NCBI GenBank assembly: GCA_029883265.1
Contig: JAOUJM010000001.1
Location: forward strand, 10,511-74,510
Direction: 5' to 3'
Length of the DNA stretch: 64,000 bases
Origin: Gammaproteobacteria bacterium
GTDB taxonomy: Bacteria; Pseudomonadota; Gammaproteobacteria; S012-40
The notes under the pieces: generated by a model
The model's database searches: none
What the model saw: the letters and a program-made list of their open reading frames with translations, nothing else
What the model was told of the DNA's origin: nothing
Made by a program: the position numbers and the translations under genes
Shown: positions 1,307-18,732 of the stretch, piece by piece
Position numbering within the stretch: the stretch's first letter is position 1
How the letters are laid out: each line of letters starts with the position of its first letter

Positions 1307-1700
1307 CTATACCCCAAATCCTGTCAGTTCCATTTTACCTGTTGATGTGTTTGGCCTGATCAAGACACCCAACCCTCGATTATCGATAACATCGAACCCC
1401 GGCTTAGTAGCCATGAGAATACTGTCACCTCTAGAGGTAGCAGAATTTAAGAATGGTACATTGACTTCGTTCCAAAATCCTTTTGGCCCCAGTGTTCTGA
1501 ACAACTCATCTGGCGCATTTAATACATTGAAGTTACCAGGCTTTGGACCAAAGTCCATACTTTTAACATTCCCAAGCTCATCAATGACTGACGCCATATC
1601 CTTGTTATAAGATCCAAGGATTGTCGTTGTTTTTCCCTGCTCGGTCTGAAGAATTACCCCGGATGATGCTTGATGGTTTAGCGTTTTGTTTGGAACTACC
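1307..1700 (-). CDS. Orphan toxin C-terminal module P (junction VVPNK); function unknown
   Basis: Junction motif at 1686-1700. The frame is continuous with the 96-aa ORF at 1307-1597 and has no start codon of its own. Confidence 0.5.
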
Positions 1701-1707
1701 CACTAGT

Positions 1708-2172
1708 CTACTTTGACTCTCCCCAATTAAATCTCACATCAATCCAAGACTTACCTTCCAACACTGACAATAGCTCTAAATCACTAAACAAAGAGTTCAC
1801 GAATTTCATGAATTCCCTTAACTGTTGCTCAAATTCTCCGCTATAGCTAGAAAGACTAAAAGGGCTTTGCTGAGAAATAGTACCACGCTTCTGTACCCAT
1901 GAATCCAGACTAAAGTCTTTATCTGTCTTATCATCAATCACATAAATGACAATGTAGTCGCCCTTATCCCCGAATGCTGGATAGAATGTAAATTCCACAG
2001 AAACACCATTATCACCGCTTAGCAAATACTCGTAGCTATCTCCTGCTGGCCCCTTACTTGATACATGCTTAGTGTGTTTAAGCCTAAATCCAATACTAGT
2101 TAGACTGTCTAACATCACCAAGAATGATTCAACTTTTTTGGCTTTATCTTTTACTGGTGTGGAGTTTTTCAT
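1708..2172 (-). CDS. Immunity-like protein for module O (154 aa)
   Basis: ATG overlaps the toxin O stop (TAATGA). It lies directly downstream of a toxin module. Confidence 0.5.
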   Translation of the reverse strand: MKNSTPVKDKAKKVESFLVMLDSLTSIGFRLKHTKHVSSKGPAGDSYEYLLSGDNGVSVEFTFYPAFGDKGDYIVIYVIDDKTDKDFSLDSWVQKRGTISQQSPFSLSSYSGEFEQQLREFMKFVNSLFSDLELLSVLEGKSWIDVRFNWGESK

Positions 2173-2606
2173 TACTTACTCCCTCCAAATATGGTCTGCT
2201 TCTCAACAGCATAAAATGGGCTAAAACCCTGATTATGAGGATTACCTATATCAATGATTGTGTACCCTTCAGATTCAATCTTCTGAGCCCAAGCTTTGTT
2301 CGCCTGATACATTTCAGTTTTAACAAGCTCAGGATTAGTCAACCTACGACCACCTTCGGTTAACCTCTCGAATTCTTTGCGTGCTGAACGAGGAATCATG
2401 TCACCATCAAAAAGTTCTACATCGTAGCCTTTCTTTTGGAGCACAGCAGCATAATCTCTTACACCATTGATTTTATTATTTCCCATCGCTCTACCAATCA
2501 CAGCGACTTTTCCGTTATCACCCTGAGCAATCCTCTGTGCTTTTAGGCCGTCTACTTCAAGCGATCTAATGCTACCTAAATCGAAGAGTTTCTTGTTTGG
2601 AACATC
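2172..2606 (-). CDS. Orphan toxin module O (junction DVPNK); small Rossmann-like domain, function unknown
   Basis: Junction at 2592-2606. The ORF at 2172-2501 extends upstream in frame to the junction. Confidence 0.5.
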   Translation of the reverse strand, partial: DVPNKKLFDLGSIRSLEVDGLKAQRIAQGDNGKVAVIGRAMGNNKINGVRDYAAVLQKKGYDVELFDGDMIPRSARKEFERLTEGGRRLTNPELVKTEMYQANKAWAQKIESEGYTIIDIGNPHNQGFSPFYAVEKQTIFGGSK

Positions 2607-2880
2607 AAACTATTTCAGTTTTTATCCTTTTGACACACTCCGCTAAAGCTCTATAGCTTGGGGGTTGAACGCAATAGGCATCAGATACATTTCGTGAAAA
2701 ACCAAGAGCTTTGTCTGATATATCGTCGACATTCCCACTCTTCAGTGCTTCCAAAAGTGCTTCAGCTGTCGCCACGATATTCATCAATTCTTCCCGATCC
2801 TCGGAATTTGAAGTATTTATTGCGTCTCTTCTGTAGAGAGCTAAGGTCGTCTTGAGTAATTCAATAATGTCATTTTGCAT
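2605..2880 (-). CDS. Immunity-like protein for module N (91 aa)
   Basis: Start overlaps the toxin N stop (TAATG). Confidence 0.5.
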   Translation of the reverse strand: MQNDIIELLKTTLALYRRDAINTSNSEDREELMNIVATAEALLEALKSGNVDDISDKALGFSRNVSDAYCVQPPSYRALAECVKRIKTEIV

Positions 2881-3320
2881 TAATTTAACTCCTCAATTAT
2901 TGCTCTCGGGCCTTGAGCATTGTAAGTTTGCTGTCCTCCTCCAATTAGGTTCGGCTTTGGCTGCGGCGCTACTGTACCTTGAAACACGGTTGTTCCGGGC
3001 TGATATTTTACAACAGCAGCCTTGGTTACCTGGTTGTTCGGTAGAGCCAAAATCCGTATTCGATCCTCAATTTTCTCAATCCATTGGGGAGTGGACCATC
3101 TACCTCCAAGTTTTGCTCCACCTTTTAACCCATCAAAGTATCGAAATTCTACTAATTCACTGTTGAGTGTTTTTACTCTAAAGGTCTCTAACTCAAAAGC
3201 CTTTATGAGTTGATTTCTTTCTGAGGGTAGTAAATCTTGCCTAGTTTCTCTAAGGATAGATCTAGCCTGTCTGATATTTGCCGCCGCTTCGGATCTGATC
3301 CCTGCACTGTCTGGAACAAC
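2881..3320 (-). CDS. Orphan toxin module N (junction VVPDS, preceded in frame by TAG); function unknown
   Basis: Translated by hand as VVPDSAGIRSEAAANIRQARSILRETRQDLLPSERNQLIKAFELETFRVKTLNSELVEFRYFDG...EELN. It is missed by the ORF track because it has no start codon. Confidence 0.5.
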
Positions 3321-16792: not shown

Positions 16793-16814
16793 CTAATCCC
16801 AAACATCAGTCAAG

Positions 16815-17096
16815 CTAACAAACAGACTCTAGATCCTTGATTAAAACCATAACCTGATCCTGATTACATTCAACAAAGAAACTGTCGATAGTAGAAGTTG
16901 TTTGCAAAGTAATAGATTGCTTAGCTTTAAGCTTTTCTGCTAGTTCTTTTGTTACATCTTCACGATTAGAATTAGTTATATGTACCGAACACACATCCTT
17001 ACCATAAACAACCATAGCTTCGTAGGAATCTTTTAAAGACCACCATTCTCGACGATCTAAAACTCCAGCTGCCTGTTCTCTTATTAAATTAGCCAT
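16815..17096 (-). CDS. Immunity-like protein for module B (93 aa)
   Basis: Start overlaps the toxin B stop. Confidence 0.5.
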   Translation of the reverse strand: MANLIREQAAGVLDRREWWSLKDSYEAMVVYGKDVCSVHITNSNREDVTKELAEKLKAKQSITLQTTSTIDSFFVECNQDQVMVLIKDLESVC

Positions 17097-17563
17097 CAGT
17101 CTACCCTAATATTATCTGTAGAGTTGAATATGCTGCGCTGCCCAGCACTATTCAAGATCAAACTTTGACTTTGTTGCTGCCTAAATATATCCAATACCAT
17201 ACGATCCCCGGGCCAGCCTGATGCATCTAGTTTAATGTCTGTCGTTCCGGGATGAGTATGACCAGACCACTTATAGCCTTTATCAGCCAAACCTTGTAAT
17301 TCAGATTTGGTTAATGGAACACCTCCAGCATTCCCTCTAAACACTAGGCGTTGACTACCATTAGTAAACAAAGCAAACTCATCACCTGTCTTTGCCGTAA
17401 GCGCTGCCAGATCAGTCACGCTTATTTGCTTCTTATGAAGAGTTGTACTTGATAATGTATCTGGTAATTGACCCAAAACCCGTTGTTGACGCTTTGACAA
17501 ATCGCCAAAGCCCCAAGCTATTTCGCTAGGAGAACTAGCTGAAATCGTCTTGTTTGGAACTAC
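17096..17563 (-). CDS. Orphan toxin module B (junction VVPNK); GHTHP-x9-S-x4-D motif as in module M
   Basis: Hand translation VVPNKTISASSPSEIAWGFGDLSKRQQRVLGQ... continues in frame into the ORF at 17096-17500. Confidence 0.5.
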   Translation of the reverse strand, partial: VVPNKTISASSPSEIAWGFGDLSKRQQRVLGQLPDTLSSTTLHKKQISVTDLAALTAKTGDEFALFTNGSQRLVFRGNAGGVPLTKSELQGLADKGYKWSGHTHPGTTDIKLDASGWPGDRMVLDIFRQQQSQSLILNSAGQRSIFNSTDNIRVD

Positions 17564-17853
17564 ATACTAAATCCGCTTTTCCAATCACTTTTAGTAGTAG
17601 GATCCGACCTCATTTCTTCTAAGAAGAACTCACACGCTGAGCTTTCATCCTCAAAACACTCTTTGCCAGTCTGCAATCCTCTCTCACTATAATAAACACA
17701 CCACCGGCCATTTTCACAACGCAAGCACAACGCCTCGTCCTTTTGTTCCTCCTCCAATGAGTAAGAGCTAGGATTAAATTTCTCCTCACTCAACTTTCTT
17801 TGAAGATCATCTTTATTCATGCAATATCCCTCATCATTTTGTAACGCGCTCAA
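17560..17853 (-). CDS. Immunity-like protein for toxin A (97 aa, cysteine-rich)
   Basis: Overlaps the toxin A stop by about 20 nt. Confidence 0.5.
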   Translation of the reverse strand: MSALQNDEGYCMNKDDLQRKLSEEKFNPSSYSLEEEQKDEALCLRCENGRWCVYYSERGLQTGKECFEDESSACEFFLEEMRSDPTTKSDWKSGFSM

Positions 17854-18732
17854 GATATTGGTTTGCTGGATTCAAGAGCTCCTTTACTGATTTTGGCAAC
17901 TCGTATTGGGTACCATATCCAGGCATATCAAAAGCAGGTGCAGCTGGGCCAATGCGTGTATCCGGAATTTCTTGGAGAACGCGATACACATTCAAGTTAC
18001 TCACATCTGTGCCGGGACGAAGGGATAATGTTTCTGGAGTTGTTCCTAAGGGGCTTGCGAATGTACCGCGTTCATTCCCGAGACGGCCTATTAGCTGTCC
18101 AGGTTGCAATGAGCCAATCTCATCAGCACCATAAACAAAACCTTTATTCTTCGGCCAATCCCAGAACACATTTTCTGCACCATACTTGCTGGTCAAATAT
18201 TCATTCCATTGAGCGCCTGAAACTGCTCCAGTCTTGTTTGGAACACGATCACCGCCTTTATATTTTAATATACCGCCAGCAATAAAACCATATGTTAAAC
18301 CACCCAATAGCTCTGGATTCTCCCTGTTCTGCCACAAGTTCCTCAGACTTTGGACCTTTCTATCTGAAAATTCGGTACTAGTAGGAAAACCCAGCTTATC
18401 TAACTTAAAGAAACTATTAAAATTTAAAGAGAGGTCATTAAACTCTTCCCAGATATTTTTTCCTATATCTAGCAAAACCTCTAAAGTCTCATTTGTCAAT
18501 CTGTCACCAAGATCTTTATGAGCATTTAGGGTTCCTTTACTGAATCTCAATGCGTAATCACCCACATCTCCGTTTTGTTTCTGCTGGTTACTCCGGCCCA
18601 AAACAACCCCATTAATCTGATCAAGTTGCTGCATTGCCTCTTCTAAATTTTGTTGACTCTCAGAAACCTCTCCAACCCCCTCCTCCTTACTATGTCCCGC
18701 CAACGTCAATGGTAAATCCACTTCCTGGCCAT
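17834..18732 (-). CDS. Displaced native 3' end of the giant YD-repeat gene, cut off by transposon 2. It has about 190 aa of pre-toxin region, then RVPNK at 18233-18247, then toxin A (ART/TNT-like fold candidate).
   Basis: The frame across the 8-bp duplicated target continues the giant ORF in frame (GYGQ|EVDLPLTLAGHS...). Residues 1-28 of the track ORF (MPAPVGNLHSSRLTDLKLTGKVRSLGRLH) are IRL-encoded. Confidence 0.7.

Follow-up and report, generated by a model that had tools for sequence, protein, structure and literature searches.

A probable orphan polymorphic-toxin array with a short conserved junction motif and IS66-borne toxin tips in a gammaproteobacterium

Architecture of the locus

The DNA analysed here (the window) is a stretch of 64,000 nucleotides (nt) from contig JAOUJM010000001.1 of a gammaproteobacterium of the lineage S012-40 (assembly GCA_029883265.1, positions 10,511 to 74,510), and the subject of this work is an array of putative toxin domains and partner genes that follows a giant gene with LysM and YD (RHS) repeats. 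On the minus strand, between 905 and 18826, 17 toxin-domain/immunity cassettes lie 3' of a carrier gene whose ORF (open reading frame) measures 6384 amino acids (aa). Each of the 17 short toxin frames, obtained by stop-to-stop translation, is followed by a small ORF with its own start codon, and the array is interrupted by two IS66-type gene sets (tnpA, tnpB and tnpC) at 18817-21044 and 6931-9185. The original prediction, a set of claims made by a model from the letters of this stretch, had placed the array at 1307-18247. These limits correspond to the junction of module A and the end of module P, but the true 3' limit is 905, in a truncated module Q, and the pre-toxin sequence of A extends to 18732. 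An identical gene order has been found in four independent metagenome contigs from four samples, and the locus is therefore neither an assembly artefact nor a chimera.

The carrier gene (21847-41001, minus strand) encodes a DUF6531/YD (RHS)-repeat/LysM protein. In Pfam, RHS_repeat is matched at 1.6e-79 (11 stretches) and 1.1e-37 (6 stretches), together with DUF6531 (2e-6) and three LysM stretches (4.5e-17), and the hydropathy profile contains one strongly hydrophobic segment at aa 5786-5818. The final 330 aa form a lipase-like tip with a GHSLGG motif, which is borne by an IS66 element described below. The PAAR families of Pfam have no match in the carrier, and the PxxxxDPxGL cleavage motif is absent before the tip, DPxG[LI] being present only at aa 2657 and 3331, within the repeats.

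A conserved DNA motif at the cassette junctions

The toxin frames open 0-28 nt after the stop codon of the preceding ORF, at the sequence GT(W)GTTCCARACA(A) (search pattern GTWGTTCCARACA), which is read in frame as (V)VP(N/D)K. A start codon is lacking at this motif, and the tips have no delivery domain of their own. Of the core GTTCCARACA there are 16 exact copies, each of them on the minus strand at a module start, against an expectation of 0.38; shuffled sequence yields at most 3 copies in 100 shuffles. In modules A and J the motif is found inside a longer frame, about 170 and 130 codons past the ends of the IS66 elements, which indicates that it is the native boundary between pre-toxin and toxin domain. 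From the point of view of codon usage, the carrier employs GTT for 41% of its valines and CCA for 34% of its prolines, with AAC at 29% and GAC at 25%, while all 16 junctions read GTT-CCA-RAC; it is thus the DNA itself that is conserved, beyond the peptide.

When R is A, the core TTGTT-CCA-AACAA is, in our own reading, a short inverted repeat. No attC-like hairpin was found: at 14 junctions the DNA does not fold consistently better than shuffled sequence (z-scores between -2.2 and +1.45), and no structure is common to them. The carrier and the orphan cassettes have only the motif of 10-14 nt in common. A literature search gave no description of it, and a genome scan with the pre-toxin region returned only relatives of about 50% identity, with no junction motif at a meaningful place.

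Modules with an assigned activity or fold

The diverse toxin repertoire of the original prediction is borne out. In fact, all the motifs that it named are present in the minus-strand translations, and the condition that it had set for its own refutation, a lack of support from profile searches, does not hold for six of the seven modules to which it had assigned an activity. As far as the enzymatic activities are concerned, those suggested below for A, D, E, F and G derive from their families or folds. NCBIfam added nothing for the toxin modules, and profile searches against the Protein Data Bank (PDB) returned nothing for C, E, J, K, B and L/N. Unless otherwise specified, the modules lie on the minus strand.

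In module A (17834-18732), a pre-toxin part of about 170 aa is followed by the junction RVPNK (18235-18244) and by a domain that matches Pfam TNT (PF14021) at 2.3e-20 (73.2 bits, cut-off 27) and, in the PDB, fungal TNT NADases (AfNADase, 5.4e-6). By family, A is a predicted TNT glycohydrolase of nicotinamide adenine dinucleotide (NAD+). Module D (14677-15793) comprises the toxin frame (15290-15793), a 78-aa zinc-ribbon partner (15057-15293) and a second partner of 132 aa (14677-15075). Structure prediction gives it a fold of the ADP-ribosyltransferase (ART) superfamily, Tne2-like, and its family has invariant R60, Y61, T81, Q96 and E133, while none of 22 members matches an ART or NADase family of Pfam. 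On the basis of this predicted fold, NAD+ hydrolysis and ADP-ribosyl transfer are equally possible for D. Both A and D had been described as ART-like: an NAD-related family (A) or fold (D) is recovered and the two are most likely NAD-consuming, but a NADase is as likely as a transferase.

Module E (13541-14676; toxin 14260-14676, 237-aa partner 13541-14254) carries the pattern IDFQ..VVSLK (frame 14263-14676) that had suggested a PD-(D/E)xK enzyme, a proposal that holds at fold level: the predicted structure, in fold comparison, is a PD-(D/E)xK (restriction-endonuclease-like) nuclease of the EC869 CdiA-CT type (PDB 4g6u), with the E...D...(D/E/S)xK signature present, and nuclease activity would follow from this model. 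For module F (12536-13544; toxin 12987-13544, 149-aa partner 12536-12985), the HNH-like reading of its ELH..N..LTH motif (12990-13544) agrees with Pfam LHH (HNH/EndoVII; 1e-8, 35.7 bits, cut-off 23.3), so that by family F is an LHH-type HNH nuclease with a putative activity of this kind. Similarly, module G (11593-12539; toxin 12024-12539, 142-aa partner 11593-12021) shows GS-x10-DID (12027-12539; GGSRIRGDFGKGSDIDVG), which fits G[GS]-x9-13-DxD, and matches NTP_transf_2 above the cut-off by a narrow margin (6.7e-5; 23.6 bits against 21), with a weak MntA match. The nucleotidyltransferase call is hence supported, and G belongs by family to the pol-beta type, with a presumed activity to match.

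Module C (15794-16792; toxin 16268-16792, 156-aa partner 15794-16264) is a putative zincin containing HEGQH (16271-16792). H100, E101, H104 and, 18 residues on, E122 are invariant in three homologs of 43-45% identity. Pfam gives only sub-threshold matches to SprT (0.021; 14.5 bits against 113) and DUF6782 (0.18), profile searches against PDB sequences give none, and the homologs are likewise devoid of a family match. By our own estimate a bare HExxH is expected about 0.4 times by chance in 2930 aa, and single motifs of this kind are therefore weak until homologs or folds back them. Of the proposed zinc metallopeptidase, the conserved HEGQH and downstream glutamate stand but significant profile or PDB matches are missing; C is a probable zinc protease at motif level.

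Module I (9745-10500) had been read as an SLT-like peptidoglycan hydrolase on account of AAQESS...GLFQME (9748-10515). Most of its 90 relatives are proteins of about 168 aa that stand alone, with ordinary genes around them. Among 43 homologs, 20 match Phage_lysozyme2 (best 2.7e-4) and 10 match SLT (best 0.011), all weakly, and the copy in the window matches neither. E114-S115 and GLFQME are nearly invariant in 43 sequences, and comparison with the phiKZ gp144 transglycosylase reaches only E 0.3. The proposal thus survives in part: the lysozyme clan is represented among the homologs, but I is the cargo of an IS66 element and not an ordinary array cassette. It is likely, with moderate support from its homologs, a lysozyme-like wall hydrolase, a reading that fits its signal-peptide partner.

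Modules without a family match and their relatives

No family match was obtained for B, H, J, K, L, M, N, O and P, in agreement with the original prediction, which had left H, K, L, N, O and P unassigned. An exhaustive HMMER search of representatives with eight modules concatenated gave 1129 relatives, spread over all eight; a word-indexed protein search with the concatenated query gave matches for B and D only, and a plasmid megablast found nothing. A C-terminal position in a delivery protein has been established for homologs of B, D, E, H, K and L/N, and not for those of C, M and O. Elsewhere, the delivery proteins that bear these tips include RHS, PT-TG, PT-HINT, PT-VENN, PAAR-like, VgrG, MuF, eCIS and DUF637 proteins. 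The relatives are therefore C-termini of recognised delivery proteins, or in one case lie beside one, which is what defines polymorphic-toxin tips.

Module B (16815-17566; toxin 17096-17566, 93-aa partner 16815-17096) has an invariant E..HxHPG..S...GD, and its 25 homologs are all C-termini of MuF/Phage_min_cap2, eCIS-core or RHS proteins. Module M (3321-4081; toxin 3542-4081, 73-aa partner 3321-3542) has nothing in Pfam, NCBIfam or plasmids, and only a weak BLAST match to B (E 0.001). A pattern E...HxHP...S..D, reminiscent of JAB/MPN metalloenzymes, is common to B (17099-17566) and M (3545-4081). A JAB-like kinship of the two is not supported beyond the BLAST match, hhalign giving only 3.9% and Pfam no match. 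In a separate high-GC contig, a B-type RHS toxin is followed by one small ORF and then by IS66 tnpA/B/C in the same orientation (L040, 4996-7436); these genes were not accepted as a cargo element, as no GTAAGCG repeat is present in the fetched stretch, and the arrangement is probably a coincidence.

The homologs of module H (10506-11614; toxin 11165-11614, 220-aa partner 10506-11168) form the C-termini of proteins of 3068-4621 aa and of a DUF637 (CdiA-type) protein. Module K (4799-5664; toxin 5188-5664, 130-aa partner 4799-5191) has 23 homologs and a weak link to WXG100. Modules L (4071-4802; toxin 4362-4802, 96-aa partner 4071-4361) and N (2605-3320; toxin 2880-3320, 91-aa partner 2605-2880) belong to the same family (hhalign 98.7%) and are the only linked pair in an all-against-all hhalign comparison. 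Their homologs are found on RHS, PAAR-like, VgrG, PT-VENN and PT-TG proteins, and the family, which has no Pfam model, is very widespread, with the largest share among the 150 matches listed. A TNT-like nature of D, H, L and N is not supported, since hhalign stays below 8% and only 2 of 50 L/N members touch TNT, at E 0.022.

Module J (5676-6846), whose 5' end is cut by the second IS66 element, consists of about 130 aa of a different pre-toxin, the junction FVPDNK (6451-6460), the toxin and a 127-aa partner (5676-6059). Its family (6044-6466) has GHID...AAGE...DN.SGHY.P.G invariant in 15 sequences and no relative in Pfam or the PDB, and is a candidate new toxin family. Module O (1708-2609; toxin 2172-2609, 154-aa partner 1708-2172) has no significant family match. 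At the end of the array (905-1702), the toxin frame of P (1307-1702) is followed by a 65-aa ORF (1112-1306) and by Q (905-1108), a 97% copy of the first 149 nt of P that is then cut off. In Listeria monocytogenes, an LXG toxin fragment is closely followed by a homolog of P, without fusion of the two.

Immunity candidates

We infer from this arrangement that the paired products act as toxin and immunity protein. The candidate of module A (17560-17853, minus strand, 97 aa) has a weak Imm59 match (5.9e-4), below the Pfam cut-off. Regarding module D, the 78-aa (CxxC...CxxC) and 132-aa partners recur together after a D-type toxin of 64% identity in an unrelated contig, and the zinc-ribbon partner recurs in a second unrelated contig as well (36-39% and 32% identity, E about 1e-20). 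The zinc ribbon encoded at 15057-15293, where the CxxC...CxxC pattern was confirmed, had been put forward as an immunity candidate and indeed accompanies D-family toxins as a conserved partner in two unrelated contigs. Consequently, the proposed co-variation of toxin and immunity pairs holds for D but not, at sequence level, for B.

Partners with a signal peptide are found only for the lipase tip (the ankyrin protein) and for the lysozyme-like I, both of which would target the envelope, and the export signals of the partners match such targets. The signal-peptide protein at 9194-9748, also proposed as an immunity candidate, does have a hydrophobic N-terminus and pairs with I, but it belongs to the cargo of an IS66 element and is not part of an ordinary array cassette.

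IS66 elements carrying toxin tips

The first IS66-family transposon (18733-22839, plus strand, 4107 bp) is made of a left inverted repeat (IRL), tnpA, tnpB, tnpC, cargo and a right inverted repeat (IRR), and is flanked by an 8-bp target duplication, ATGGCCAG. Its transposition genes are recognised by NCBIfam above all cut-offs (TnpA 62.4, TnpB 100.5 and IS66 transposase 383.7 bits). The cargo, on the strand opposite to the tnp genes, consists of an ankyrin immunity gene (21095-21823; Pfam 8e-12), whose product has an export signal, and of the lipase-like toxin tip (21847-22839). The frame of the tip is open through the IRR, and the fused tip of 330 aa is intact. When the element is removed, the carrier sequence ...NGYGQ joins EVDLPL... 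of module A in frame, and the resulting carrier-A fusion without IS66 (the empty site) would be AATGGGTATGGCCAGGAAGTGG. The continuity of the frame from the carrier to A across the duplication indicates that A, with its TNT domain, is the original tip, now displaced.

The second element (6847-10500, plus strand, 3654 bp) has the same order of IRL, tnpA/B/C, cargo and IRR, the cargo being the signal-peptide protein and module I. The frame of I runs out through the IRR into an array junction, ...VVP|VSVQNSAP..., with the VVP codons in frame. No target duplication is present at its flanks, and since its left flank lies in the pre-toxin of J, a later rearrangement is likely. The two elements are 86.7% identical over nt 1-2263 and 94% over the last 33 nt, while the cargo between these parts is unrelated. 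The IS66 inverted repeats measure 23-30 nt, are 87-88% complementary and start with GTAAGCG. The 23 nt at the boundary between carrier and tip, GTAAGCGTCCAAAACTCTGCCCC (VSVQNSAP), also begin module I and are the inverted complement of the left ends of both IS66 copies.

A scan of metagenomes for the IS66 inverted repeat found only two further loci. In one of them (JGI Ga0224506_10003679, 1-700), the right end of element 1 is present with 99 of 99 nt identical up to the last base of the repeat, and abuts an array of clustered regularly interspaced short palindromic repeats (CRISPR) with at least 10 repeats (TTTCTAAACCGCGTACTCAGCGGATAAC). The same right end at a CRISPR locus of another genome or strain indicates that the unit moves as a whole. 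No description of IS66-borne toxin tips was found in the literature search.

Cassettes and motif in other organisms

Close relatives of single cassettes have been found in foreign contexts together with the motif. A K-like cassette of 90% identity lies behind a CdiA-like pre-toxin region (L042), with GTTGTTCCAAACAA at its start and GTAGTTCCAGACAA overlapping the immunity stop codon; its guanine-cytosine (GC) content is 0.41, and that of the flanks 0.53 and 0.51. An L-like cassette of 89% identity, with the motif on both sides, is present in Vibrio cincinnatiensis (L043). In Alcanivorax limicola (GC content of the locus 0.58), two Rhs tips, Ntox46 and N-type, both begin at GTTCCAAACA. Moreover, an orphan array of CdiA (L044) contains an N-type cassette whose junction carries one silent change, GTACCAGACA. 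The junction motif is thus found on three kinds of carrier, namely LysM-YD, Rhs and CdiA-like proteins. In 27 unrelated genome loci, the 9-mer GTTCCARAC is present 5 times (L003, L006, L007, L018 and L027), which is close to chance by our estimate, and none of these copies was seen at a toxin junction.

Flanking regions

The array is closed by a transposase-like gene (1-738, minus strand) that appears IS110-like to the eye. On the other side, upstream of the toxin island, the translations of 48804-64000 read as a flagellar or flagellar-type export cluster, with a FliA-like sigma factor, FliP, FliN/M-like, FlgE, FlgD, FliI and FliF proteins, as well as FlgB/C, FlgI, FlgH, FlgA, FlgG and FlgF. 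Next to where the giant gene starts, 414 bp (41101-41514 against 47016-47429) repeat the 3' part of a TPR gene (47101-48189) as a 99.3% copy. A degenerate sequence resembling the IS66 repeat, GTAACCGTGCAAAACTC, is found at 41969-41985, 450 nt beyond this copy. The segment from 41.5 to 47 kb may be inserted DNA; its translations read as a putative beta-barrel protein and two exported proteins.

In Parendozoicomonas haliclonae (NZ_FWPT01000009.1; L018, 5-12951), a giant LysM-YD homolog of the carrier is located beside flagellar genes, as in the window. Its C-terminus is a distant D-family domain (30% identity, E 1e-12), and an orphan array is absent. The gene that follows encodes a 95-aa protein whose zinc-ribbon C-terminus is in common with the 78-aa partner of module D.

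Comparison with known systems

Clusters in which an Rhs main gene is followed by orphan rhs-CT/rhsI pairs are known in Salmonella Typhimurium LT2, Escherichia coli, Serratia and bee-gut symbionts, and the orphans are presumed to become active when they recombine with the main gene (PMC3967940; PMC10539506; PMC8125069). The locus described here shares with them a YD/RHS carrier, a variable toxin tip with its immunity gene behind it, and further promoterless pairs stacked downstream. It differs in that the carrier, at 6384 aa, bears LysM domains and a hydrophobic segment, while the PF03527 core, the PxxxxDPxGL motif and PAAR/VgrG neighbours were not found; in that 10-14 nt are shared instead of hundreds of core bases; and in that there are 17 cassettes and the expressed tip is transposon-delivered. 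With the CdiA-CT/CdiI orphans, the locus has in common a short conserved peptide junction, the orphan arrays and tips that occur on both Rhs and CdiA proteins, and the fold predicted for module E is that of the EC869 CdiA-CT. Here, however, the junction is VVP(N/D)K and not VENN, and there is no TpsB/CdiB gene and no FHA repeat in the window; CdiA-like carriers elsewhere do bear K- and N-type cassettes with this junction (L042 and L044). Compared with the NAD(P)+ glycohydrolases Tne2, Tse6 and TNT (CpnT), module D has no Pfam or PDB match at sequence level, and ADP-ribosyl transfer, as in Rhs1-CT/Tre23 or DarT, is an equally possible alternative.

The array also resembles integrons, in which cassettes without promoters form a stack behind a single expression point, a short conserved site delimits each of them, and the latest insertion is nearest to the expressed position. 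Unlike in integrons, IntI and attC hairpins were not found, library scans having covered a minor part of the ORFs of the window, and the site, being part of a reading frame, gives rise to protein fusions. Finally, the transposons are typical of IS66 in their tnpA-tnpB-tnpC order, GTAAGCG inverted repeats, 8-bp duplication (element 1) and additional genes between tnpC and the IRR. What distinguishes them from known IS66 elements with passengers is that the passenger, a toxin domain without a start codon, has a frame open through the inverted repeat and is accompanied by an immunity gene; the element can hence produce a new toxin fusion when it inserts into a gene.

Interpretation and alternative explanations

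Taken together, these data lead us to consider the locus as the orphan toxin-tip/immunity array of a giant LysM/YD-repeat polymorphic toxin from an uncultured marine gammaproteobacterium (probability about 0.85). Orphan polymorphic-toxin arrays are a known kind of locus, and this one departs from the textbook form in three respects: the giant is an atypical LysM/YD protein that lacks the Rhs core motif and has no visible secretion partners; the junction is reduced to a DNA-conserved site of 10-14 nt, which stands at both ends of cassettes in different genera and on different types of carrier; and IS66 transposons carry start-less tips that read out through the inverted repeat. The stored tips represent at least 15 unrelated families, eight or more of which have no activity call. 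By type, they include the presumably NAD-consuming A and D, the predicted nucleases E and F, the nucleotidyltransferase-like G, the probable zinc protease C and the lysozyme-like I.

In the mechanism that we propose, each tip would act as a small enzyme lethal to a neighbouring cell, and the small gene behind it would encode the antidote of the producer. Only the tip fused to the carrier would be exportable. New cassettes would enter, and old ones would be re-activated, by recombination at the motif, older tips being pushed downstream as cassettes enter. IS66 offers a second route, carrying a promoterless lipase tip with a secreted ankyrin immunity protein: element 1 inserted in frame about 170 codons upstream of the original junction, which makes the lipase the currently expressed tip and A an orphan, while its sister IS66 carries I. 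It is possible, though less likely than not, that the tip/immunity cassettes of marine gammaproteobacteria constitute a pool shared between unrelated carriers (LysM-YD giants, classical Rhs and CdiA-like proteins) through two dedicated routes, recombination at the motif and IS66; recombination at the motif would then be an in-frame analogue of integron cassette capture.

Several observations weigh against our interpretation. The PF03527 Rhs core has no Pfam match in the last 1499 aa of the carrier, and no PAAR, VgrG or TpsB was recognised in the 64 kb, although such genes may lie outside the window; among the ORFs from 41 to 64 kb, read by eye without a library scan, no VgrG or PAAR was recognised. 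The 10-14 nt of homology between cassettes is too short for ordinary RecA recombination, and besides the transposases no recombinase candidate was identified. Furthermore, since the IS66 insertion the carrier is no longer joined to the VVPNK junction, and the orphans can therefore no longer become active through a simple deletion. The homologs of B are not accompanied by a recognisable relative of its immunity protein, and C, I and eight further modules are without a threshold-level family match.

Among the alternatives, one leaves the identity of the genes untouched and concerns only the mechanism of exchange: an integron-like, site-specific cassette system in which TTGTT-CCA-AACAA is the recombination site of a dedicated enzyme and circular, one-site toxin-immunity cassettes integrate at the carrier junction. 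The conservation of the motif as DNA beyond the peptide, the precise cassette ends, the motif at either end of single cassettes that lie in foreign DNA of different GC content (as integration at a site would lead one to expect), the persistence of its AT-rich form in a 58%-GC genome and its occurrence on the three carrier kinds, LysM-YD, Rhs and CdiA-like, all speak for such a system. Against this, no integrase or tyrosine/serine recombinase was identified in the ORFs of the window (library scans covered the array, the main gene and the IS66 genes) and attC-like hairpins are missing at the 14 junctions. The motif is also always in frame and the VP(N/D) peptide is recurrent, so that a processing site and shared descent of the cassette 5' ends could account for part of the conservation; one homolog shows a silent change (GTACCAGACA), and the outside evidence amounts to three loci. 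We regard this system as rather unlikely. A further explanation, that the gene pairs are free-standing toxin-antitoxin or phage-defence modules, would account for their small size and tight packing, for the weak resemblance of G to MntA-type nucleotidyltransferases and for the stand-alone homologs of I in ordinary neighbourhoods. It is contradicted by toxin frames that open at a stop codon with the junction motif and have no start codon, by the pre-toxin sequence retained in A and J, with A in frame with the carrier, by the homologs of B, D, E, H, K and L/N, which are C-terminal domains of large RHS, CdiA, MuF and eCIS proteins, and by the P homolog just downstream of an LXG toxin fragment; we consider it highly improbable.

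As regards the transposons, they might be ordinary, damaging IS66 insertions, the lipase fusion being accidental and the cargo merely captured neighbouring DNA. The same element end beside a CRISPR array points to a lack of specificity for toxin genes; two of the three frames through the inverted repeat are open in our own reading; the missing target duplication of element 2 shows that rearrangements have occurred; and IS66 elements with passenger genes are known (PMC12888890). Yet two related elements with 86.7% identical modules and different cargo have the same build, with both tips outermost and directed outward through the IRR in the VSVQNSAP frame, no start codon before the inverted repeat, and the immunity gene just inside the toxin tip. 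In addition, all 330 aa of the fused tip are intact, an export signal is present on its partner, and the inverted repeat of element 2 abuts the VVP codons of the array in frame. Accidental insertion is accordingly a possibility that we place, like the shared pool, short of an even chance.

Implications

Exchange of tips between unrelated carriers is usually ascribed to homologous recombination in long conserved flanks. In this case, only 10-14 nt are shared, they are conserved as DNA in at least four lineages, and a warhead has visibly been replaced in frame by a transposon; with a short DNA-conserved motif and such a replacement, the mechanism of exchange becomes directly testable. Should the mechanistic ideas fail, the locus would still be an unusually large, otherwise ordinary orphan toxin array. 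The array also brings together at least 15 toxin families in compact form, and about half of these lack a Pfam model. Two Pfam-less families now have a predicted fold, D (NADase/ART) and E (PD-(D/E)xK), and one family now has a conserved zinc-ribbon partner. If the role proposed for the transposons is true, transposition of IS66 into a toxin gene would swap the warhead and at the same time bring the matching immunity gene.

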